A stretch of 29,296 nt of DNA from a virus: UHGV virus genome UHGV-0080837. The stretch is one strand, 5' to 3'. Shown piece after piece: positions 7,384 through 23,674 of this stretch; position 1 is the stretch's first letter, and each line of letters opens with the position of its first letter. A program made the translations under genes and the position numbers. The notes below the pieces were generated by a model. The model was not told where the DNA came from, ran no database searches, and saw nothing but the letters and a program-made list of their open reading frames with translations.

Positions 7384-7677
7384 TTAAGGTTCAGACCAGT
7401 TATCTTCAATAGCAATGCTTAATCTTTGTAGCCATTCTGCTAATTTCAGCATTGCTTCTCTTTCGCTTAAACCACGAGGAAAATCATCAAGCGAAATTGT
7501 TGGCTTGAAGCCCCCGTAATTATCCATTTCAACGGTCAGATTTTGCTCCAGCACGGTATTCCTTACGCGGCTATTGTGCCGAAGCAAATATACTGAACGT
7601 GATTTATTGGTTTTGTGGTCGAATGTATATTCGGTAAGTATCATCTGGCTTCCGCCATGATTATTACCTCGCCACAT
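7384..7677 (-). CDS. hypothetical protein
   Basis: 97-aa ORF; GGAG 5 nt upstream of the ATG at 7677. Confidence 0.45.
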   Translation of the reverse strand: MWRGNNHGGSQMILTEYTFDHKTNKSRSVYLLRHNSRVRNTVLEQNLTVEMDNYGGFKPTISLDDFPRGLSEREAMLKLAEWLQRLSIAIEDNWSEP

Positions 7678-7689
7678 AATTACTCCGTG

Positions 7690-8106
7690 TTAATAAGAGA
7701 AATATACCGTTGCAACACTGTTATATTGGTCGAACGAAATAGCATTTACTTCATAGCTGGTGGGCAGCTTCTTACCAAGAATGTAGCCAGGCCATGAGTT
7801 CCACGGAATTTCTGTACGGTCGTCGTCTTGCCACATTACGCAACCAAGAGAGCCAACCATTTCACCATATCGCTTGCCACAAGTAACAAAGCCGATATTC
7901 GGCTTTTCTTGTGTTGCTGATACCATGGTGGTATTGGCAGATGCATTGATTGCAGTACGCCGCGCTTGCTCGCTAGCGATAGAAGCATTTACTGCCGCCG
8001 TGGTCGCTGCTGTTGCCGCCGCTCCAGCGGCAACAACTGACGCGTGGGATAAATGACTGGCTGATAACATAGCCAGAAAAATAATAGCTCTTTGAAATTT
8101 AGCCAT
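7690..8106 (-). CDS. secreted protein with N-terminal signal peptide
   Basis: Within track ORF 7690..8184; the internal ATG at 8106 gives MAKFQRAIIFLAMLSASHLSHA (a typical Sec signal) followed by an Ala/Thr-rich linker. Confidence 0.45.
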   Translation of the reverse strand: MAKFQRAIIFLAMLSASHLSHASVVAAGAAATAATTAAVNASIASEQARRTAINASANTTMVSATQEKPNIGFVTCGKRYGEMVGSLGCVMWQDDDRTEIPWNSWPGYILGKKLPTSYEVNAISFDQYNSVATVYFSY

Positions 8107-8132
8107 TGATTTAACCTTTATTGCGAACATAT

Positions 8133-8354
8133 TTAGCTGTGTGTTGCCGATGTGCGGAGATTCTCTTCTATCAATTCCACGCATTCTGACCGACGAACAA
8201 ATAATTCTTCTCCGTTATGAATTACGACATAGCCGTAAGCGGTTTTACGCATCACATCGAACTCATCCCATACGGAAATACCGCACTCTGCTAACGAGCA
8301 ATCCAAATAATCTTCCGGATGCTTGTCGGTGTTATTAATGATGCGAATCCTCAA
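8133..8354 (-). CDS. hypothetical protein
   Basis: 73-aa ORF in operon context. Confidence 0.4.
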   Translation of the reverse strand: MRIRIINNTDKHPEDYLDCSLAECGISVWDEFDVMRKTAYGYVVIHNGEELFVRRSECVELIEENLRTSATHS

Positions 8355-8391
8355 ATCTTTTCACCTTTGACGGCAAGTTGCAGGTTAGCCA

Positions 8392-8652
8392 TTACCTCAC
8401 CTCCAGTCTCCATACCGCCTGACCAATCCGGCTGGCATGGGTATCTTTGGATACTGTTCCGTCTTTAGCCATCTCCATAAGAATTTTGCGCAAATCTGCC
8501 GAGCGCCATTCTTCATCAGGAAATTCCTTCTCCATTGCCAACCGCAGATTCCAGGTTGCTATCGTGAATGGATATTCCCCGCCGAGAGCTTTCTCTTGCA
8601 GGGCCGCACGGGAACGTATCACCTGCAAAACCTTCTCTTTTACATCCATCAT
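8392..8652 (-). CDS. hypothetical protein
   Basis: Track ORF 8392..8724; the ATGATG at 8647-8652 is preceded by AGGAGG and overlaps the upstream stop (ATGA), so the start is taken at 8652 (MMDVKEK...). Confidence 0.45.
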   Translation of the reverse strand: MMDVKEKVLQVIRSRAALQEKALGGEYPFTIATWNLRLAMEKEFPDEEWRSADLRKILMEMAKDGTVSKDTHASRIGQAVWRLEVR

Positions 8653-9239
8653 TTTGCCTCCTGCGGCGGTTCTGGTAGCGGCATCCAGTGTGATGGTATC
8701 CACGACGCACCAGGTATTACCCACCCATCATTAGCGTCAGGATGCCCCGGGATGTAAGTCGCCCATTTCATTCGCCAGTCACCTTTCCTGTCAAACTCCC
8801 TGGCAACAAGAACGGCTGTTTTGGTATCCGGCATTCGCTCACTACAGCTTATCCAACTATCCGGAATTACCGGATAGTTGCGCATTGCGACCTTTAATGC
8901 CTCATAGAAGCAACCTTTCAGATTGTTGAACTGACGCCCATTTAGCGGGCCGTGTTCAGTCAGCATGTTGTGTAATTTCCATGCCGCGTCGTTTACTTCG
9001 TTGGATGACAGGGGAGGCAACTTGTAAGTTTGGCTTACAGGTTCGGCACCATGAAGCATGGCAGCACGGCAGGCGTTCCAGCCAGCTGTTCGCCCAAGCG
9101 AGTAAACTTCAGATGGCTCAAGATAATCAATGTCATGCCCGTCCTCATCGTCGTTCTCAGGTAATGCAGCAGGTACTACTGGTACTGGAGGGGGCGGCAT
9201 AAACAGGAATAACGTCCGCTTGCTCTTTATTGCTTTCAT
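8649..9239 (-). CDS. DUF551-domain phage protein
   Basis: C-terminal region (WISCSERMPDTKTAVLV ... GWVIPGASWIPSHWMPLP) fits the DUF551 pattern. The start is uncertain (alternative ATG at 9200); the track ORF overlaps the upstream gene by about 80 nt. Confidence 0.5.
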   Translation of the reverse strand: MKAIKSKRTLFLFMPPPPVPVVPAALPENDDEDGHDIDYLEPSEVYSLGRTAGWNACRAAMLHGAEPVSQTYKLPPLSSNEVNDAAWKLHNMLTEHGPLNGRQFNNLKGCFYEALKVAMRNYPVIPDSWISCSERMPDTKTAVLVAREFDRKGDWRMKWATYIPGHPDANDGWVIPGASWIPSHWMPLPEPPQEAK

Positions 9240-9417
9240 CCGTTAAAGCCCAGAATAATTTCCCGGCCGGATGTTTGAAAATATAAGCAACTGGATCTGC
9301 TTCCAGCGATGCCAGTGCAATTTCATAAGCCCGGCGTTCAATATTGTCTCGAACGTCCAGGCTGCTGATACGCTCTTTGATTTCTTTAATCAGTTCTTTG
9401 TCGGTTAAAGTGGTCAT
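9157..9417 (-). CDS. hypothetical protein
   Basis: 86-aa ORF, ATGA-coupled to the upstream gene. Confidence 0.4.
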   Translation of the reverse strand: MTTLTDKELIKEIKERISSLDVRDNIERRAYEIALASLEADPVAYIFKHPAGKLFWALTDESNKEQADVIPVYAAPSSTSSTCCIT

Positions 9418-9623
9418 TTGTTAATCCTCAAAACTTTATGCCCGGGCGCAAAAGCACGTGTTTTGTCTTTGCTTATTCGCCAGCCATCCTTACGTGCCTC
9501 TTTTGCACAGCCAGCCCATGACGTACCGATATATTCACCGAAGTCTGGCACTGGATATACACCTTCCGTACACTGGCGGCAGTCACAATAGAGATGCATG
9601 GTGTAACTTGCGGCAATAGCCAT
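9414..9623 (-). CDS. small Cys-rich protein
   Basis: Start placed at the ATG at 9621-9623 (MAIAASYTMHLYCDCRQC...), preceded by AAGGAG; the track ORF extends to 9695 in an overlapping frame. Confidence 0.4.
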   Translation of the reverse strand: MAIAASYTMHLYCDCRQCTEGVYPVPDFGEYIGTSWAGCAKEARKDGWRISKDKTRAFAPGHKVLRINK

Positions 9624-9624
9624 A

Positions 9625-9813
9625 TCACTCTCCTTTAGTGCGCAAATGGTTTTTCCAGCGGTTTTGCGCCGCGCTGGGCTTTTTGCAAAAACCACAATCC
9701 ATCATCCCGTAATATTTCATCAACCCCATCCGTCGGTTGCTGAGTCTCACCCACTGCCAGACGCCAGGAGCGTTTCTACGAACTAACAGAATCTTTGCTT
9801 TACGGTTTTTCAT
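9625..9813 (-). CDS. small basic protein (MKNRKAK N-terminus), copy 2
   Basis: 62-aa ORF whose ATG overlaps the stop of the upstream paralog (ATGA at 9810-9813). Confidence 0.35.
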   Translation of the reverse strand: MKNRKAKILLVRRNAPGVWQWVRLSNRRMGLMKYYGMMDCGFCKKPSAAQNRWKNHLRTKGE

Positions 9814-9986
9814 CTTACTGCGTACCCTTTCTTCCGCCTGTTCTGTGACGCAGTAGGCTTACGCTTTGCGGCAAAAGCCACCTGACCAAATGGATGGAGT
9901 ACCGCTATCTTATGGTTGCTAATAACCAGCTCCACCACACGCACAGGTCGCTGTAAAAAAAGTCGTTTTGCCTTACGGTTTTTCAT
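9810..9986 (-). CDS. small basic protein (MKNRKAK N-terminus), copy 1
   Basis: 58-aa ORF, below the ORF-track cutoff, translated by hand from the ATG at 9984-9986. Its first 7 codons are near-identical in DNA to the downstream copy. Confidence 0.3.
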   Translation of the reverse strand: MKNRKAKRLFLQRPVRVVELVISNHKIAVLHPFGQVAFAAKRKPTASQNRRKKGYAVR

Positions 9987-10158
9987 CGCTTTGCTCTCCT
10001 GCGTCTCTTTGCTGCTCGTCGTGCCGCTGCAATACCGGTATGGCGGCGCTTTGGTGCTGGGGTGATGTTGTCAGCCATCAGGACCTGTGGCTTTGCAATT
10101 AGCGCAGAAGCCCAAAAACGAGTCGGGTACGGTAACAAGCCAATACATGCCACACGCA

Positions 10159-10605
10159 CTACTCACCTCCGTTGATGCGAATGCCTGTTGCAATGCTGTT
10201 TATGATGCTGTCAGTGCATGGGGTAGAAAGCTGGGCATCTCCAGCAATTTTCATGACATCAACATCTGCATATCGAATACCGAGGTGTATCAGACCGGCT
10301 ATACCTGACTTAAGCCGAGCATTTTCCATAAACAGATCCTTTGCCCGCTGTTTTTCTGCCTCAAGCTCAACGCGCAACTTCCCTACCGTTAGCGCAATAT
10401 CCTCGTTCTCCTGGTCGCGGGATTTGATGTATTGCTGGTTTCTTTCCAGTTCATCCAGCAGTGCCAGCGCGATATCTGGCGAAAAGTGCTTCATAAAATC
10501 GTTAAGCGCATTAATTCGCTGATCGAAGGGCATTACAGGTGCTTCACCAGCAATTTTTGTTTTTTCAGCGATTTCACGAAGCTTTTGATAATCAATCTTG
10601 CTCAC
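10159..10605 (-). CDS. Ea22-like phage protein (paralog 3)
   Basis: GTG start preceded by AGGAGG; N-terminus MSKIDYQKLREIAE shared with the neighbouring paralog; coiled-coil middle. Confidence 0.55.
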   Translation of the reverse strand: MSKIDYQKLREIAEKTKIAGEAPVMPFDQRINALNDFMKHFSPDIALALLDELERNQQYIKSRDQENEDIALTVGKLRVELEAEKQRAKDLFMENARLKSGIAGLIHLGIRYADVDVMKIAGDAQLSTPCTDSIINSIATGIRINGGE

Positions 10606-11189
10606 TGGTTGCCTCCTTTGCGAAGCTGTTCAGCAATACTTACGCATATCTCTGCGCCTCTAATCAGCCCCGGAACGTTCTTGTTTGGCCCAACTTCACC
10701 ATCAACAAAATCAATCATCGCGTTACGAGCCATATCCACCCCCTGCGCACGTACTTCAGCCAGGAGAGCGTCGGTAGCTGGGGTTTCCGTGAAGTTGTCC
10801 TCCCAACCGTAGTACTCCTGACGACAGAAGTTATTAAATTCCTTCTCCGACTGTTTAAGCGCCGCATTCTCCACTGCCAGCGCCGCGCACTTGGCCTCAA
10901 GAGCGGCAACCACTTCCTGATGGTCTTTGTACTTAACGTATGAGCCGGAGATGTCATCACCTTCGGTGTTTAGCCATGCGTCATTGCAATTCACTGCGTA
11001 GGTTCTGATGCTGATGCTCTCCCGCCCCTGACAGACGCCAGGCCAGTCAATAAAGTATCCGCAATGCCTACCCTCAGACGTGCGCGCAGGATAAATGCCG
11101 TTATGACCCGGCAAAATATATGCTACCCATTCATCTTGCGTTGCCTGTTCCGCCGCCTCGCGCAGTTCTTGATAGTTAATTTTGCTCAC
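10602..11189 (-). CDS. Ea22-like phage protein (paralog 2)
   Basis: GTG start preceded by AGGAGG; N-terminus MSKINYQELREAAE; C-terminus ATDALLAEVRAQGVDM ... QLRKGGNQ shared with the 14072..14506 paralog. Confidence 0.6.
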   Translation of the reverse strand: MSKINYQELREAAEQATQDEWVAYILPGHNGIYPARTSEGRHCGYFIDWPGVCQGRESISIRTYAVNCNDAWLNTEGDDISGSYVKYKDHQEVVAALEAKCAALAVENAALKQSEKEFNNFCRQEYYGWEDNFTETPATDALLAEVRAQGVDMARNAMIDFVDGEVGPNKNVPGLIRGAEICVSIAEQLRKGGNQ

Positions 11190-11475
11190 TGGTTGCCTCC
11201 GCTTCCCACGTTTTCAGACTTTCACCACAGAATGGGCAAAATGAAACTCGAATAGGCGATTTAGAAAATTCACCAGACCGCAGCATGATCAGGTCCTGTG
11301 AATGAATTAATTCATGGTTATAGACTTTGTATTTCAGCAGGCCTTTTCGCGTCGTGTATTCAGCATCCTGCTCCAGAGATTGTGCCAGCGCCGCGCACGG
11401 TTCTATTTTTCTGCCATTAATCAAACAAGTGGAGATTCTGCACTTTGCAGCTCCGTCACCGTTACCTTGACTCAT
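11176..11475 (-). CDS. hypothetical protein with CxxC pairs (possible zinc ribbon)
   Basis: 99-aa ORF with CRISTC and CPFCG motifs. Confidence 0.4.
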   Translation of the reverse strand: MSQGNGDGAAKCRISTCLINGRKIEPCAALAQSLEQDAEYTTRKGLLKYKVYNHELIHSQDLIMLRSGEFSKSPIRVSFCPFCGESLKTWEAEATSEQN

Positions 11476-11488
11476 TGCGTTGTTCCCA

Positions 11489-12484
11489 TCAGTTATTAAA
11501 CGTGATCACTCCGCGCTCGATGGCGAAGTCGAAAAGCTGGTTAGCGACTACATAAAGGCGTATGCCATGTGCTTTTTCCCATGCCCGGACATCGTGTTCT
11601 GCGCTTCTGGCGCAGTCATCGCAAAGAGGAACAGCCCAGCGGTCGTGTTCGTTTAACGAGCGGGCGCGGTACATGAACGGGTGGTTAACTTTGCTACCGC
11701 ATCCGATGCACGGACGAGAAACCACAAAGCGGAGATAAGCCGGGCTTTTTCCGAGTAAGGTTTTTGGACGGCGCATATATAGGAGGCCAGAATCCTCATC
11801 TACAGACAGGTTGACGATCTGCTCTGCGGTTATGTCCACCAGCTCGCGCGTACTGCGCTCCCAGGTGATATCTGATTCTTTCAGCGTACCGGTAGGGATT
11901 TCAGTTTTTGGCTGACAAAATGCAATGCGCCCGGCTTCATCTGGCAGCTCATCTTTCAGATTCCGGCGAATGGCCCAAAAAGTGAGTTCAACCATGCTCA
12001 GATCGCGTTCTGGCGGTAGTTTTAACTCGCTCGCAGCCCAGTTCATAACCCAGTTGGCGCGATTCAGGGATAACTGGTCGTCCAGCTTGCTGTACCCCTT
12101 CATCATGTATTCCGCATCATGCTTCCAGCACAGGCGAACGGCAGAGCCGTTATAGAAATGAGTGGTTAGCTGGTGGCTGCAATCGCGCTTATCGTGCGCC
12201 TGGCAATCGTGGATATTGGAACTTACCCAATGAACAAGCGAATCTTCACCGCCTAACGCGTTAAATACGCGCTCGCTTTGAAAAAATGGTTTCAGCGACT
12301 GGTTGGCAACCAGCGAATAATTCAGATCCACTACGCCATCTGGAGTGTTTTCAGCCTGTTCTCGCGGAAGTGGTGAGATAATGAAACGGCGACCTGCGCC
12401 GATGTAGTTGCTGGTGGGCTTGTCTACCGGAAAGACAGCCACACCAGTTTCATTTACGACATATGGGGTGATTATTGCACTCAT
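11489..12484 (-). CDS. DUF968-like prophage protein
   Basis: 331-aa ORF with C-terminal Cys/His cluster (CIGCGS ... CDDCARSAEHD) as in lambdoid DUF968 proteins. Confidence 0.5.
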   Translation of the reverse strand: MSAIITPYVVNETGVAVFPVDKPTSNYIGAGRRFIISPLPREQAENTPDGVVDLNYSLVANQSLKPFFQSERVFNALGGEDSLVHWVSSNIHDCQAHDKRDCSHQLTTHFYNGSAVRLCWKHDAEYMMKGYSKLDDQLSLNRANWVMNWAASELKLPPERDLSMVELTFWAIRRNLKDELPDEAGRIAFCQPKTEIPTGTLKESDITWERSTRELVDITAEQIVNLSVDEDSGLLYMRRPKTLLGKSPAYLRFVVSRPCIGCGSKVNHPFMYRARSLNEHDRWAVPLCDDCARSAEHDVRAWEKAHGIRLYVVANQLFDFAIERGVITFNN

Positions 12485-12527
12485 AATGCATACCGACTCT
12501 GTTTTGTTCCGAGTGGTAAAATAATAT

Positions 12528-12558
12528 GTTAGAAAACTAAAATCAATATTCTAACGCA
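12528..12558. promoter_or_regulatory. operator dyad with leftward promoter-like elements (internal promoter)
   Basis: TGTTAGAAAA (12528-12537) and TTCTAACGCA (12549-12558) in inverted orientation. Minus-strand TTGATT and an AT-rich -10-like hexamer overlap it. Confidence 0.4.
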
Positions 12559-12581
12559 TTTTGAGTGCGTAAATGATTTGA

Positions 12582-13274
12582 TCAGACTTTAAGCTGCCCT
12601 CCCTTCACCTGCATTAGCGTCAGATTTCCACAAAAAACCGCGCCCGTGTCTATGTAGTGCTGATTCCAGTATGCTTTTGGTCTTCGTACCGGTGTGTGCC
12701 CAAAGATAAAGCGATCTGCGCCTGTGATTTCTCCACCAATGCCATCTATCGAATCACCGACGCGACTGCGCGACCAGACAACATCAAAAAGCGATACATC
12801 CTTACCGAACTGGTACTCTCCACCTGGATAGTCGGCATGGGCTATAACGATAGTTTCATGTCCGGTGTTCAACTCAATGATATATGGCAGACGCTTTACC
12901 AGCTCCACCAGCGCCTTGGCTAATATTTCCTGATCAGTGTCCAGCATGAAGAACCATTGTCCGCCATTCATTAGCCAGTTATTCACGTTGCCATCAGGAC
13001 TTAACGCATCAAGCATCAACCGCTCATGGTTCCCCATTACTGCCCTGAACCAGGGCATCTGCAATAGTTCCAGACATTCGACATTTTCAGTACCGCGATC
13101 GATAAGGTCGCCAACCGATATCAGTAAATCCTGCGCCGGGTCAAAATCCACACGATGGAGTTCGGACATCAGTCTGGTGTAGCAACCATGCAGATCACCA
13201 ACTACCCATATGTTTCTGTAGCCAGAACCATCAATACGGCTATATAAATTCACTTCATGCATAGCCTGGATCAT
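12582..13274 (-). CDS. Ser/Thr protein phosphatase, bacteriophage lambda PPase family
   Basis: Near-colinear similarity to lambda phosphatase from memory: [48 protein letters not shown]. Start taken at the ATG at 13274 (ATGA overlap with the upstream stop). Confidence 0.9.
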
Positions 13275-13582
13275 GCGGCAACCTTCTCCCGCAGCCAGAT
13301 ACAAACTGGACCATCTTCAGTGTCATGAATAGAGCCAACAAACCAGCCTTCACCCTCTGGTCGCTCCGGTTCCCAGGCGGCAATATCGGGACCAGCTGCG
13401 TCCAGATCAAAATCATCTTCATCCATACTGCGAATAGTCCACTGAAGATTATTTTCCTTCATCCAGGCGTCAAATTCCTCAGTGGATATATATTCACGAC
13501 CTGCGCAAAACTTTTCATACTCCGGATGTGTCCAGCAGCCATATTCATCACGTTCTACCGGCATTTCTTTAATGATGCTCAC
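13271..13582 (-). CDS. hypothetical protein
   Basis: 103-aa acidic ORF in operon context. Confidence 0.45.
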
Positions 13583-13803
13583 TCTTCATCCTCCAAGTCG
13601 GCAACGGCATCCATCACATCAGAACCGCGAATAACCTCAAAAGCACGGCAGGCCATTTCAAACACCTGTTGTTCTTGCGGATGCGGTGACTCCCAATACT
13701 TAAAACCAGGTCGATGCTCGTAACCCATCATGGAATAAAAATCGCCAGCAAGTTCAATCGCGGCATCAACAAGTTCGCGATTTGTCATCGTCTGTTCTGT
13801 CAT
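13579..13803 (-). CDS. hypothetical protein
   Basis: 74-aa ORF, ATGA-type coupling on both sides. Confidence 0.4.
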   Translation of the reverse strand: MTEQTMTNRELVDAAIELAGDFYSMMGYEHRPGFKYWESPHPQEQQVFEMACRAFEVIRGSDVMDAVADLEDEE

Positions 13804-14075
13804 TTTGTTTTCTCCTGTCTGAACATCACTATCATCAGGTCGCCTTTTGTCGCTATCCTGGCTGTTGTGCCAGGCTCAATGCGGCTAAGTTCAAATGCGT
13901 CATAGAACGCCTCTAACGCTTTCTGGCGTCTCTCCTGTTTGCGGCGCTTTCCCCACTGCTTTAGAAAAACAGAGGCCGCCCACTTCCCCGCACTGAACAT
14001 GATGTAAAGCCAACCGAGAAGTGCCAGACCGGAATTTAGGAGCGTATCGATCGTTATTGTCGTGTCGATATTCAC
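13800..14075 (-). CDS. small membrane protein
   Basis: GTG start in the same AGGAGGCAGCCAGTGA context as the Ea22-like genes; hydrophobic segment LLNSGLALLGWLYIMFSAG. Confidence 0.4.
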   Translation of the reverse strand: MNIDTTITIDTLLNSGLALLGWLYIMFSAGKWAASVFLKQWGKRRKQERRQKALEAFYDAFELSRIEPGTTARIATKGDLMIVMFRQEKTK

Positions 14076-14506
14076 TGGCTGCCTCCTTTGCGAAGCTGGT
14101 CGGCGAACAAACGTACACTAGACGCTTCACTGCGTAGAAACTTAACGGCATAATCAAAACCACCTCGTTCTGCGTCGTCTGCTCCGTTGTCGAGGTTATC
14201 TGCGTACATCTCTACCCCCTGCGCCCGTACTTCAGCCAGGAAAGCATCGGTGGCTGGAATGGGCTTTTGTGGTGATATAGCAATACGTATTGTCTCAAGG
14301 TCTGGATCTGTTTCCGCTGTTGGCACCTTGATATAACCCATCTGCACCCCATTCATGATGAACCTGCGACAGTCATCACATATCGCCTTTAGCCCTGCAT
14401 TCTCCGCCGCCAGCGCCGCGCGCTCTTTCTCAAGACGGAAAATTTCCGTCACATACTGAGCGTTACGCTCCGCCAGTTGCTCTGGCGTTAAACCTTCAGA
14501 CTTCAT
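14072..14506 (-). CDS. Ea22-like phage protein (paralog 1)
   Basis: ATG at 14506 preceded by AAGGAGAG; C-terminus ATDAFLAEVRAQGVEM ... QLRKGGSQ shared with the paralog at 10602..11189. Confidence 0.55.
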   Translation of the reverse strand: MKSEGLTPEQLAERNAQYVTEIFRLEKERAALAAENAGLKAICDDCRRFIMNGVQMGYIKVPTAETDPDLETIRIAISPQKPIPATDAFLAEVRAQGVEMYADNLDNGADDAERGGFDYAVKFLRSEASSVRLFADQLRKGGSQ

Positions 14507-15433: not shown

Positions 15434-15588
15434 CAAAATTTCCCCAAAATCGTGACGCAAAACATAAGCACTGCGAAAAGCTCAATACCAAGCTCAAGTA
15501 GCGCCAGCGCCCCGAAAAACAACACATAGAACAGGCCAATCTCATTCACAGATGGCTGGTGGATCGCACTTAAAGCTATAAGCATCAT
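15433..15588 (-). CDS. small hydrophobic leader peptide (about 50 aa)
   Basis: Hand-translated: MMLIALSAIHQPSVNEIGLFYVLFFGALALLELGIELFAVLMFCVTILGKF. GGAGG precedes the ATGATG at 15583-15588; first ORF of the leftward operon. Confidence 0.3.
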   Translation of the reverse strand: MMLIALSAIHQPSVNEIGLFYVLFFGALALLELGIELFAVLMFCVTILGKF

Positions 15589-15613
15589 GTCCTCCAAACA
15601 GTTATCAGGAATG

Positions 15614-15658
15614 ATATTAATGTTTTGTGTTAGAAAATCAATTTTGAATATCTAACCA
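15614..15658. promoter_or_regulatory. divergent promoter region with operator dyad
   Basis: Dyad TGTTAGAAAA (15628-15637) and TATCTAACCA (15649-15658). On the minus strand TTGATT, a 16-nt spacer and TAATAT form a good sigma70 promoter with a half-site in the spacer; a rightward TTGAAT -35 overlaps the other half-site. Confidence 0.5.
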
Positions 15659-15705
15659 TTTAGATCAATCATAGAAAAATAGCTGAAAAGTAAGAGGCAG
15701 CCATC

Positions 15706-16284
15706 ATGCAGAAACAGAGCTATTGGGAGAAACAGAGACAAAAAGCCATGCAAAAATTGGCTGACCCAGCCTGGCGAGAGGAACAAAGGGCAAAGCGCCT
15801 TCAACAAGCTCAACGCCAGCAGCAACGAGCGAGAGAAAAAGCCGCATCGCCTGAATATCGGCAAAAGAGAATTGAAAAAGCAAAGCAATATGACCAGCGG
15901 AGAAAAGAGAAAGCTGTATCCACTCCGTCCAAAAAAACACGCACGTCACGCGGCCTGAAGGGCAGATCACTCACAGCCGATGAACGCCGGATACAGACCG
16001 CTATCGGTACTCTCCCCTGCATTGCCTGCCATATTCACGGGCAACATAGCCCAGTGGTATCCCTGCACCATATCTTCGGGAGAACGGCAGAGAACGCGCA
16101 TAAATATGTCCTCCCTTTGTGTAAATGGCACCACCAGTACGCAGCGCCAGCCGAGGTCCGAGAACAATATCCCTGGCTGGTCCCTGTTCATGCTGACGGA
16201 AAAATAGGCGGAAAAGCAGATTTCATGCGGCACAATGCCGATGAAATGGCGTTGTATCAGATGGCGATTGAATTGATAAATTAG
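15706..16284 (+). CDS. ref: Ref-like HNH-family nuclease (P1 recombination enhancement function type)
   Basis: 192-aa ORF with a long, highly charged K/R/Q/E-rich N-terminal region followed by a Cys/His core (CIACHIHG ... SLHHI ... LPLCKWHH), matching the known architecture of P1 Ref. AAGAGG RBS. Confidence 0.55.
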   Translation: MQKQSYWEKQRQKAMQKLADPAWREEQRAKRLQQAQRQQQRAREKAASPEYRQKRIEKAKQYDQRRKEKAVSTPSKKTRTSRGLKGRSLTADERRIQTAIGTLPCIACHIHGQHSPVVSLHHIFGRTAENAHKYVLPLCKWHHQYAAPAEVREQYPWLVPVHADGKIGGKADFMRHNADEMALYQMAIELIN

Positions 16285-22962: not shown

Positions 22963-23301
22963 TCAGGCTGCTTTTTTATTCAGGTTCCGCTGAGAAATAA
23001 ATTTTTCAGCAGTATTGATACGACTTAACTCTTCCTGAACGCGCATATCATTTTCGACTTCCCACAGATCTACTGCGGTCTGAAGATTAATCCAAAAATC
23101 TACAGAAGTATCGAATGCTTTTGCCAGGCGATATGCCATATCCATCGTTAGCTTACGATTATTATTAACAAGAGCACTTACGGTGTTACGATGAACATGA
23201 AGTATTTCTGCTAACTCGTTGATCTTCAGCTCTAACGGCTCCAGGTATTCGTACAGAAGGATATCACCTACGGTCGTCGGTTTTCTGGTTGCCTGTTTCA
23301 T
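22963..23301 (-). CDS. higA: HigA-family antitoxin (XRE-type HTH)
   Basis: 112-aa ORF with the HigA-type HTH pattern (VGDILLYEYLEPLELKINELAEILHVHRNTVSALVNNNRKLTMDMAYRLAKAFDTSVDFWINLQ), immediately downstream of the toxin gene. Confidence 0.75.
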   Translation of the reverse strand: MKQATRKPTTVGDILLYEYLEPLELKINELAEILHVHRNTVSALVNNNRKLTMDMAYRLAKAFDTSVDFWINLQTAVDLWEVENDMRVQEELSRINTAEKFISQRNLNKKAA

Positions 23302-23371: not shown

Positions 23372-23674
23372 TTAGTATTTGTGTGGGTCGAGATACAAGT
23401 CCTCGGCCTTTCCGTTAACCCACTTAAAAATTAACCTATATTGCTTATTCACCCTTACTGATGAATAGCCATTTAGCTTCCCTGACAGTTCCTCATACCG
23501 ATTACCTGGTGGTGATCTTAAATCCTTACAGGTAGTTGCGGCATTGATAATGTCCAACTTCCGTGACAATGTCATATGAATATCAGGAGGTATCTTTCTA
23601 TGTGGTGTTGAAAATTCAAAAAAATCATCAAGCCACGCATCCCTGAAATCCTTTATGTTAATTTTTTTGGTCAT
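23372..23674 (-). CDS. higB: HigB-like toxin (plasmid maintenance system killer protein family)
   Basis: 100-aa ORF with the family pattern DL.SPPGNRYEELSGKLNGYSSVRVNKQYRLIFKWVNG.AEDLYLDPHKY; toxin-first order typical of higBA. Confidence 0.75.
   Translation of the reverse strand: MTKKINIKDFRDAWLDDFFEFSTPHRKIPPDIHMTLSRKLDIINAATTCKDLRSPPGNRYEELSGKLNGYSSVRVNKQYRLIFKWVNGKAEDLYLDPHKY

Follow-up and report, generated by a model that had tools for sequence, protein, structure and literature searches.

Two consecutive minus-strand ORFs in the 29,296-nucleotide stretch of viral DNA analyzed here (UHGV-0080837; the whole stretch is referred to as the window) are almost certainly protein-coding: they appear as diverged, full-length tandem paralogues of one small phage family, PHROG 1380. 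As an overall explanation we lean toward unlike paralogues that are co-expressed and act as nucleic-acid-binding accessory proteins. The exact proteins are already in RefSeq, the family is already defined as PHROG 1380, and the similarity within a tandem pair has been remarked in the record of phage phiV10, whose annotators had noted that p51 resembles p50. What is new here is the evidence for frame-specific selection, the position-dependent C-terminal tails, the rule that pairs combine unlike types, and the inconsistent public annotation of the family.

The two ORFs are diverged members of PHROG 1380

The two ORFs, named copy 1 and copy 2 in the order of transcription, and their repeated starts are as follows.

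9810..9986, minus strand: copy 1, 58 aa, full protein MKNRKAKRLFLQRPVRVVELVISNHKIAVLHPFGQVAFAAKRKPTASQNRRKKGYAVR, beginning MKNRKAKRLFLQ (ORF listing)
9625..9813, minus strand: copy 2, 62 aa, full protein MKNRKAKILLVRRNAPGVWQWVRLSNRRMGLMKYYGMMDCGFCKKPSAAQNRWKNHLRTKGE, beginning MKNRKAKILLVRR (ORF listing)
9967..9986, minus strand: start of copy 1, 20 nt, ATGAAAAACCGTAAGGCAAA, coding for MKNRKAK (exact repeat)
9794..9813, minus strand: start of copy 2, 20 nt, ATGAAAAACCGTAAAGCAAA, its ATG overlapping the stop codon of copy 1 (exact repeat)

Both ORFs open with ATGAAAAACCGTAA(G/A)GCAAA, and the 20-nt sequence ATGAAAAACCGTAARGCAAA occurs exactly twice in the window, at 9967-9986 and 9794-9813 on the minus strand, against 0.00 occurrences expected from 100 shuffles. 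The stop codon of copy 1 and the start codon of copy 2 overlap as ATGA at 9813-9810 (minus-strand sequence), while the stop codon of copy 2, TGA at 9627-9625, is followed by a single T and then by the ATG, at 9623, of a 69-aa ORF. The initial annotation had described these two ORFs of 58 and 62 aa, with their shared start, ATGA overlap, and 1-nt gap to the next gene, and every one of these features was confirmed in the sequence. It had also described duplicated start regions after which the two ORFs diverge. Paralogy in fact spans their whole length: BLASTP aligned 54 residues of copies 1 and 2 (E = 5e-10), of which 37% are identical and 61% similar, and each copy matches phrog_1380 from its first residue to its last, copy 1 with residues 1-58 against positions 1-60 of the 62-position profile (E = 6.5e-23) and copy 2 with residues 1-62 against positions 1-62 (E = 1e-40). 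Copy 1 is identical to the RefSeq protein WP_000797289.1 and copy 2 to WP_000797279.1, both hypothetical proteins. The two are strongly basic, with pI values of 12.0 (copy 1) and 11.3 (copy 2), 16 Lys+Arg against 1-2 Asp+Glu, and a net charge of about +14.

Searches of 5.8 billion proteins yielded 171 family clusters at 90% identity. Among 1.84 billion representatives, an exhaustive profile search picked out 48 at 50% identity, all of them small enterobacterial phage ORFs once P0099, a spurious repeat protein, was rejected; a scan of genome contigs for the family returned one 228-bp contig. Members are phage or prophage ORFs of 55-70 aa from Escherichia, Salmonella, Enterobacter, Citrobacter, and Klebsiella, and the family proteins have pI values of 11-12. 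Entries of greater length result from over-extension or frameshift fusion in the gene calls, and the fusion proteins P0107 and P0108 contained no informative additional domain. Three motifs are near-invariant in the alignments: M[KN]NRKA[KR]xL at the N terminus (MKNRKAK in both window copies), [RK][ILV]SN[RH][RK] in the middle, and K[PR]SAAQNRWKNH near the C terminus, the last with the signature form [ST]A[AS]QNR[WR]K. The stretches that separate them are hypervariable. All three signature motifs are found in copy 1 and in copy 2. Copy 1 belongs to the 'SNHK' subfamily (type G) and carries a junction-type C-terminal tail ending in ASQNRRKKGYAVR, whereas copy 2 belongs to the 'SNRR' subfamily (type A) and carries a terminal-type tail ending in SAAQNRWKNHLRTKGE. 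The MKNRKAK start that the two copies share is an invariant N-terminal motif of the family, preserved as protein sequence while its codons vary synonymously; it is not a local DNA duplication.

Both copies evolve as protein-coding genes

Codon usage was analyzed in 119 unique gene sequences taken from 278 loci. Invariant residues are encoded by several synonymous codons: Ser27 by AGC, AGT, TCA, or TCT; Arg29 by CGC, CGA, CGT, or CGG; Gly39 by GGT, GGA, or GGG; and Arg61 by CGC, AGG, or AGA. Values of pN/pS were computed within types from pairwise sums over nonindependent pairs. For the copy-1 type (G), the called frame gave 0.11 and the two remaining forward frames 3.2 and 7.2; for the copy-2 type (A), the called frame gave 0.21 and the two remaining forward frames 0.93 and 1.49. 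For type H, the called frame gave 0.19; across types, the other forward frames spanned 0.93-7.2. The in-phase antisense frame also had a low pN/pS, as expected, and contains no ORF. Because invariant residues vary synonymously and, of the forward frames, only the called one has a low pN/pS, both copies are, on this comparative evidence, protein-coding and under purifying selection. Part of the DNA identity of the conserved ends could stem from recent recombination rather than from selection on the protein.

The initial annotation had taken the tight packing of the two ORFs as a sign that they are translated. This argument held up, with an ATGA overlap at every adjacent junction of 59 multi-copy arrays and a low pN/pS confined to the called frame. 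Literature searches with the peptide and with the accessions returned no paper that mentions either, and no experimental data on translation or function.

Copies form ATGA-joined arrays with position-specific tails

Across 146 distinct regions, the family occurs as a single copy in 87, as a double in 56, and as a triple in three. A comparison of the copy 1-copy 2 junction across relatives, which the initial annotation had proposed, found the same -4 (ATGA) overlap in all tandem arrays. The C-terminal tail follows array position independently of type: copies at upstream or middle positions terminate in [ST]A[AS]QNRRKKGYAVR, a copy that is last or alone has the terminal-type tail of copy 2, and bodies of types A and B are seen with either tail. 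A junction module consisting of tail, ATGA, and MKNRKAK is common to all arrays.

Pairs nearly always combine different types, the upstream member being of an 'SNHK' type and the downstream member of an 'SNRR' type, as they are in the window; by region, G-A was found 36 times (the window's own combination), F-E eight, B-D four, F-D three, G-D three, and A-D twice. Among the triples, the combinations are G-A-D and F-F-D. Types G and F, which make up the 'SNHK' subfamily of copy 1, essentially never occur alone. The arrays form a cassette-like mosaic in which conserved ends serve as recombination handles and the middles are shuffled between them.

The Shine-Dalgarno sequence of copy 1 (AGGAG) is moderate, with a dG of -7.4 kcal/mol, and that of copy 2 is weak (-4.5 kcal/mol); the flanking genes have strong ones (-9.1 to -11.6 kcal/mol). 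Since its own Shine-Dalgarno sequence is weak, we infer that copy 2 is quite probably co-translated with copy 1 by termination-reinitiation coupling. Such coupling would give co-expression of the unlike pair.

The pair lies in the accessory gene string of a P1-like phage-plasmid

Window positions 9400-10200 are 100% identical to several E. coli plasmids of about 90 kb, including p1_000837 and pCREC455-3, and 96.6% identical to the Punavirus RCS47. The matching records annotate a terminase, a Cre-type recombinase, Ref, Icd/Ant, a maturation control protein, hot, humD, and tail and baseplate genes. Judged by these annotations, the host element is a P1-like phage-plasmid and not a lambdoid prophage. 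The initial annotation had placed the pair in a lambdoid early-left operon, which fails for this element but is right for the origin of the cassette, as an orthologue of copy 2 (98% identical) lies between ea22 and xis in the Stx phage 933W.

The pair sits in a string of small same-strand genes that covers about 10 kb, from window position ~15460 down to 5169, and runs from the ref-divergent end to hot/humD. Its counterpart in P1-like elements is 'variable region 8', pmgT...hot-humD (PMC9603915). Its content is of the lambdoid 'ea' type, with Ead/Ea22-like, DUF551, DUF968, DUF1382, DUF4752, and metallophosphoesterase genes. The ref gene itself, at 15706-16284 on the plus strand, is divergent from the leftward accessory string. 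When promoters and terminators were sought inside the gene run, no minus-strand promoter-like site was found in 7500-14500. The P1 C1 operator consensus ATTGCTCTAATAAATTT, allowing up to three mismatches, is absent from the whole window, including the intergenic region 15461-15705; because of this absence, immunity or regulation of this P1-like element probably differs from that of P1.

The immediate neighbors of the pair are the following.

10159..10605, minus strand: Ead/Ea22-like gene at the head of the local run of coupled ORFs (Pfam PF13935, E = 5e-23; RefSeq annotation)
9983..10159, minus strand: upstream Arg-rich ORF, 58 aa, pI 12, ending in TGIAAARRAAKRRRRAKR (phrog_13831, E = 5e-40)
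9414..9623, minus strand: downstream Cys-rich ORF, 69 aa, starting 1 nt past the stop codon of copy 2 (phrog_926; RefSeq WP_000951710.1)

The stop codon of the phrog_13831 ORF overlaps the ATG of copy 1, again as ATGA, and its GTG start is preceded by a strong Shine-Dalgarno sequence, GGAGGUGA (dG -10.8). It is unannotated in the identical RefSeq plasmids and annotated in phiV10 (p49), and it lies directly upstream of PHROG 1380 members in at least 85 of about 117 contexts. Its pN/pS is 0.65 against 0.77-1.29 in the other frames, and on these sequence data its coding status is uncertain. The phrog_926 ORF has its Shine-Dalgarno sequence within the tail codons of copy 2 (AAAGGAGAG, dG -9.1). 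It is one of several alternative downstream neighbors of the family: a search for a fixed downstream functional partner found none, with a 171-aa nuclease-like protein in this position 44 times, phrog_926 32 times, and others besides.

Several further features of the element were observed. A DUF551-like gene looks split into ORFs 9157..9417 (86 aa) and 8649..9239 (196 aa), both on the minus strand and overlapping in different frames at the tract GCCGCCCCCTCC (around 9190-9200), which contains a run of five C; a frameshift, a pseudogene, or a sequencing error may account for this, and related plasmids annotate one intact DUF551 gene at this position. ORF sizes and correspondence to the pCREC455-3 annotation indicate a HigA-antitoxin/RelE-ParE-toxin pair at 22963-23301 and 23372-23674 (minus strand), between tail genes. 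Related phage-plasmids carry an IS200/IS605 remnant and a TnpB (InsQ) gene in or near the same string (L001:1599-2897, L279:23075-24283), and no ORF of TnpB size (~402 aa) is found among the window ORFs of at least 90 aa.

The cassette is shared among several kinds of phage and annotated inconsistently

The cassette is common to the exo-xis region of 933W-type Stx phages and to phiV10. Phages 933W and VT2-Sakai carry a single copy that is 98% identical to copy 2, whereas the window carries two. RCS47 (gp057) has the same family, and the proteins of the Stx phages and RCS47 show 98-100% identity to copy 2. In phiV10, p50 and p51 likewise form an ATGA-joined tandem pair, but of types B-D rather than the G-A of the window. 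The virulent Sashavirus and Avunavirus phages have single members, likewise within runs of small hypothetical genes. For Stx phages, a modeling review of the exo-xis region notes "full or partial gene duplication," with the PHROG 1380 family left untreated (PMC8614690).

The initial annotation had supposed that the first copy, being so short, would normally be missed. This is only partly so: RefSeq annotates both copies in several of the identical plasmids, whereas copy 2 is absent from the RefSeq record of RCS47 and the single copy of 933W from the annotation of that phage. In 933W, the 62-aa gene was omitted and its neighbor L0068 was extended at the N terminus; in VT2-Sakai, orf8 is a 155-aa over-extension that seeded phrog_12350; and in phiV10, p51 is over-extended.

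Predicted fold and proposed function

Scans of both copies and 27 family members against Pfam, NCBIfam, and PADLOC gave nothing significant; a match to zf-C2H2_jaz (E = 0.096) was rejected, as the Cys and His residues are not conserved across the family. A profile search of PDB sequences returned no match at E ≤ 10, and the sole finding of Foldseek against BFVD was a family member from phage Av-05. Two AF2 models were built, the first with a pLDDT of 63.7 and the second, of the 62-aa copy 2 with a 59-sequence alignment, with a pLDDT of 80.4 and a pTM of 0.44. The predicted secondary structure (H4-13, E19-23, E28-33, E38-43, H48-60) is that of an alpha-beta3-alpha mini-domain, so that each copy would fold as a helix, a three-stranded sheet, and a helix. 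In the model, the three invariant Asn/Arg-rich motifs map to helix 1, to the beta1-beta2 turn, and to the start of helix 2. Because of this placement and the net charge of about +14, a nucleic-acid-binding mini-domain is suggested, and we tentatively propose that the proteins may be nucleic-acid- or ribosome-binding accessory mini-proteins, with RNA or the ribosome a somewhat likelier target than DNA. The variable surface of the sheet would tune specificity. The likely role would be an accessory, host-modulating function, expressed together with the neighboring ea-type genes.

Alternative readings of the family

The initial annotation had suggested that small basic proteins in this position of lambdoid early-left operons are often Kil-like or host-takeover factors. 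Each protein would then be a toxin that blocks an essential host process, such as FtsZ-dependent division, with filamentation or growth arrest on induction. The genes do sit among nonessential ea-type accessory genes, and the 98% orthologue of copy 2 lies within the pL-transcribed exo-xis region of 933W. Published work shows an influence of entire exo-xis regions on the lysis-lysogeny decision (PMC3824215, PMC8614690). The published exo-xis experiments, however, were done with lambda and the Stx phage Phi24B, and in the first 9 kb of the latter, where its exo-xis region is located, no family-like ORF is present. Lambda Kil is also a small protein of a phage accessory or early region, but it is not strongly basic like the family, there is no match to Pfam Kil (PF06301), and hhalign gives a probability of 0.2% against lambda Kil, so that a Kil-like identity by homology was discarded. 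Nor does position argue for it: Kil lies between gam and cIII in the lambdoid pL operon, whereas the pair lies in the accessory string of a P1-like element, and in 933W the family orthologue is found between ea22 and xis, with kil elsewhere. On balance, we consider toxins of this kind unlikely. Homology to lambda cIII, Ral, Orf60a, Orf61, Orf63, Ea8.5, Orf55, Xis, and N was rejected as well (hhalign probability below 1% each; 0.1-0.6% for Orf60a/DUF1317, Orf63/DUF1382, Orf61, Ea8.5, and Orf55). The small exo-xis proteins of lambda and Stx phages (Orf60a, Orf61, Orf63, Ea8.5, Orf55, and Ea22) do share a niche with the family, being short, nonessential, packed, and near Ea22-like genes, but they have no sequence relationship to it, and the locus studied here is in a P1-like phage-plasmid.

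The family could also comprise divergent relatives of Sra/S22, acting as phage-encoded ribosome-binding factors that modulate the host 30S subunit. Sra/S22 is a stationary-phase ribosome-associated protein specific to enterobacteria. Like the family, it is small and basic; its N-terminal SNRxARxLL motif, followed by an ISN motif, weakly resembles the N-terminal half of the family proteins, and it shares the narrow host range of Escherichia, Salmonella, Citrobacter, Enterobacter, and Klebsiella, Sra being restricted to the same enterobacterial genera (PMC3353972). PRK10057 (Sra) was the only NCBIfam model matched by more than one member (three of 27, best E = 0.17). Compared by hhalign with a 3-sequence Sra-like profile, the family alignment matched it over 37 columns with P = 0.0034; KNRKAKxLL fell opposite SNRxARxLL, and ISNRR opposite [KL][IL]SN. 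The family HMM ranked Sra above 2989 of 3000 composition-matched shuffles, 11 of the 3000 reaching the real score. Against this, the hhalign probability is 9.5% with the Sra-like profile and 1.4% with Sra alone, and the scores fall far below the 35-bit cutoff (12.4 bits for the best member, with E = 0.17), with no match for the window copies. Only the N-terminal halves resemble each other, and aligning them takes a gap of 8 residues. Neither the first beta-strand nor the C-terminal SAAQNRWKNH helix has a counterpart in Sra, and homology is conjectural. With about 15 candidate proteins and 18,950 models screened, correction leaves the nominal P-values nonsignificant.

True Sra-family proteins do occur in phages, a point in favor of this reading, but the phage Sra-like proteins do not match phrog_1380. 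One, QXN68753.1 of Hafnia phage yong2 (L284:1486-1770), scores 60.7 bits against PRK10057, and gp67 of Escherichia phage Sa179lw (L285:1501-1680) scores 34 bits, the cutoff in both cases being 35. A tblastn search for further examples found only three phages, which do not suffice for a better profile, and phage-borne Sra homologues appear to have received little study. We regard a true relationship to Sra as quite unlikely and keep the weak sequence resemblance only as a lead. A more elaborate version appears improbable. Here, the family would be a diversified, phage-borne branch of Sra/S22-like proteins whose arrays of one to three unlike copies reprogram or protect host ribosomes, with the beta-sheet under arms-race diversification and the conserved ends serving both as ribosome or RNA contacts and as recombination handles.

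Still less probable, in our estimate, is a HicA-like or dsRBD-like RNA-binding or RNase module, in which copies 1 and 2 could form a toxin-modulator pair. The likeness consists of a length of about 60 aa, basic character, the alpha1-beta1-beta2-beta3-alpha2 order predicted by AF2, and an SNH turn in copy 1, whose ISNHK lies at the beta1-beta2 turn as GSNHL lies at the turn of E. coli HicA (6HPB; the G-S-N-H catalytic turn). A 'HicA-like toxin' appeared at rank 12 in the BFVD Foldseek search and was nonsignificant (E = 0.25). HicA homology was rejected, since hhalign gave a probability of 0.07% and the shuffle test a p of about 0.21. No superposition in three dimensions was obtained on solved structures of HicA or dsRBD proteins, and none of the 27 family members matched Pfam HicA. 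No HicB-type antitoxin is adjacent, the neighbors being the Arg-rich ORF, phrog_926, the nuclease-like 171-aa protein, and DUF551 proteins.

Finally, we find scarcely credible a nonfunctional, non-coding duplication, which the initial annotation had named as the result that would speak against it and in which the repeated start is a recombination scar or linker and the ORFs are fortuitous: conserved ends flanking shuffled middles and position-specific tails are both typical of mosaic recombination joints, and frameshifted or fused variants such as P0110, P0022, and P0073 occur, but purifying selection is frame-specific, codons turn over synonymously at invariant residues (AGY/TCN serine switches included), and the motifs are kept in distant members from other genera and in the virulent Sashavirus and Avunavirus phages. 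Codon turnover and the pN/pS tests led us to reject it.

Discussion

The coding tandem paralogues described here exemplify something common, namely uncharacterized small accessory genes in a mosaic phage region. As regards annotation, the family is called inconsistently in 933W, VT2-Sakai, phiV10, and RCS47, and frame-specific selection fixes gene models of 58-65 aa. The cassette moves among lambdoid Stx phages, epsilon15-like phages, P1-like phage-plasmids, and virulent phages, and this spread marks it as a portable accessory function. The resemblance to Sra, if true, would be the first functional handle on the family and would bear on an enigmatic host protein. Conserved ends, swappable middles, position-specific tails, and unlike pairs together suggest cassette diversification. 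Elsewhere among phage accessory genes, such a pattern is usually a sign of interaction with a variable host or defense target.
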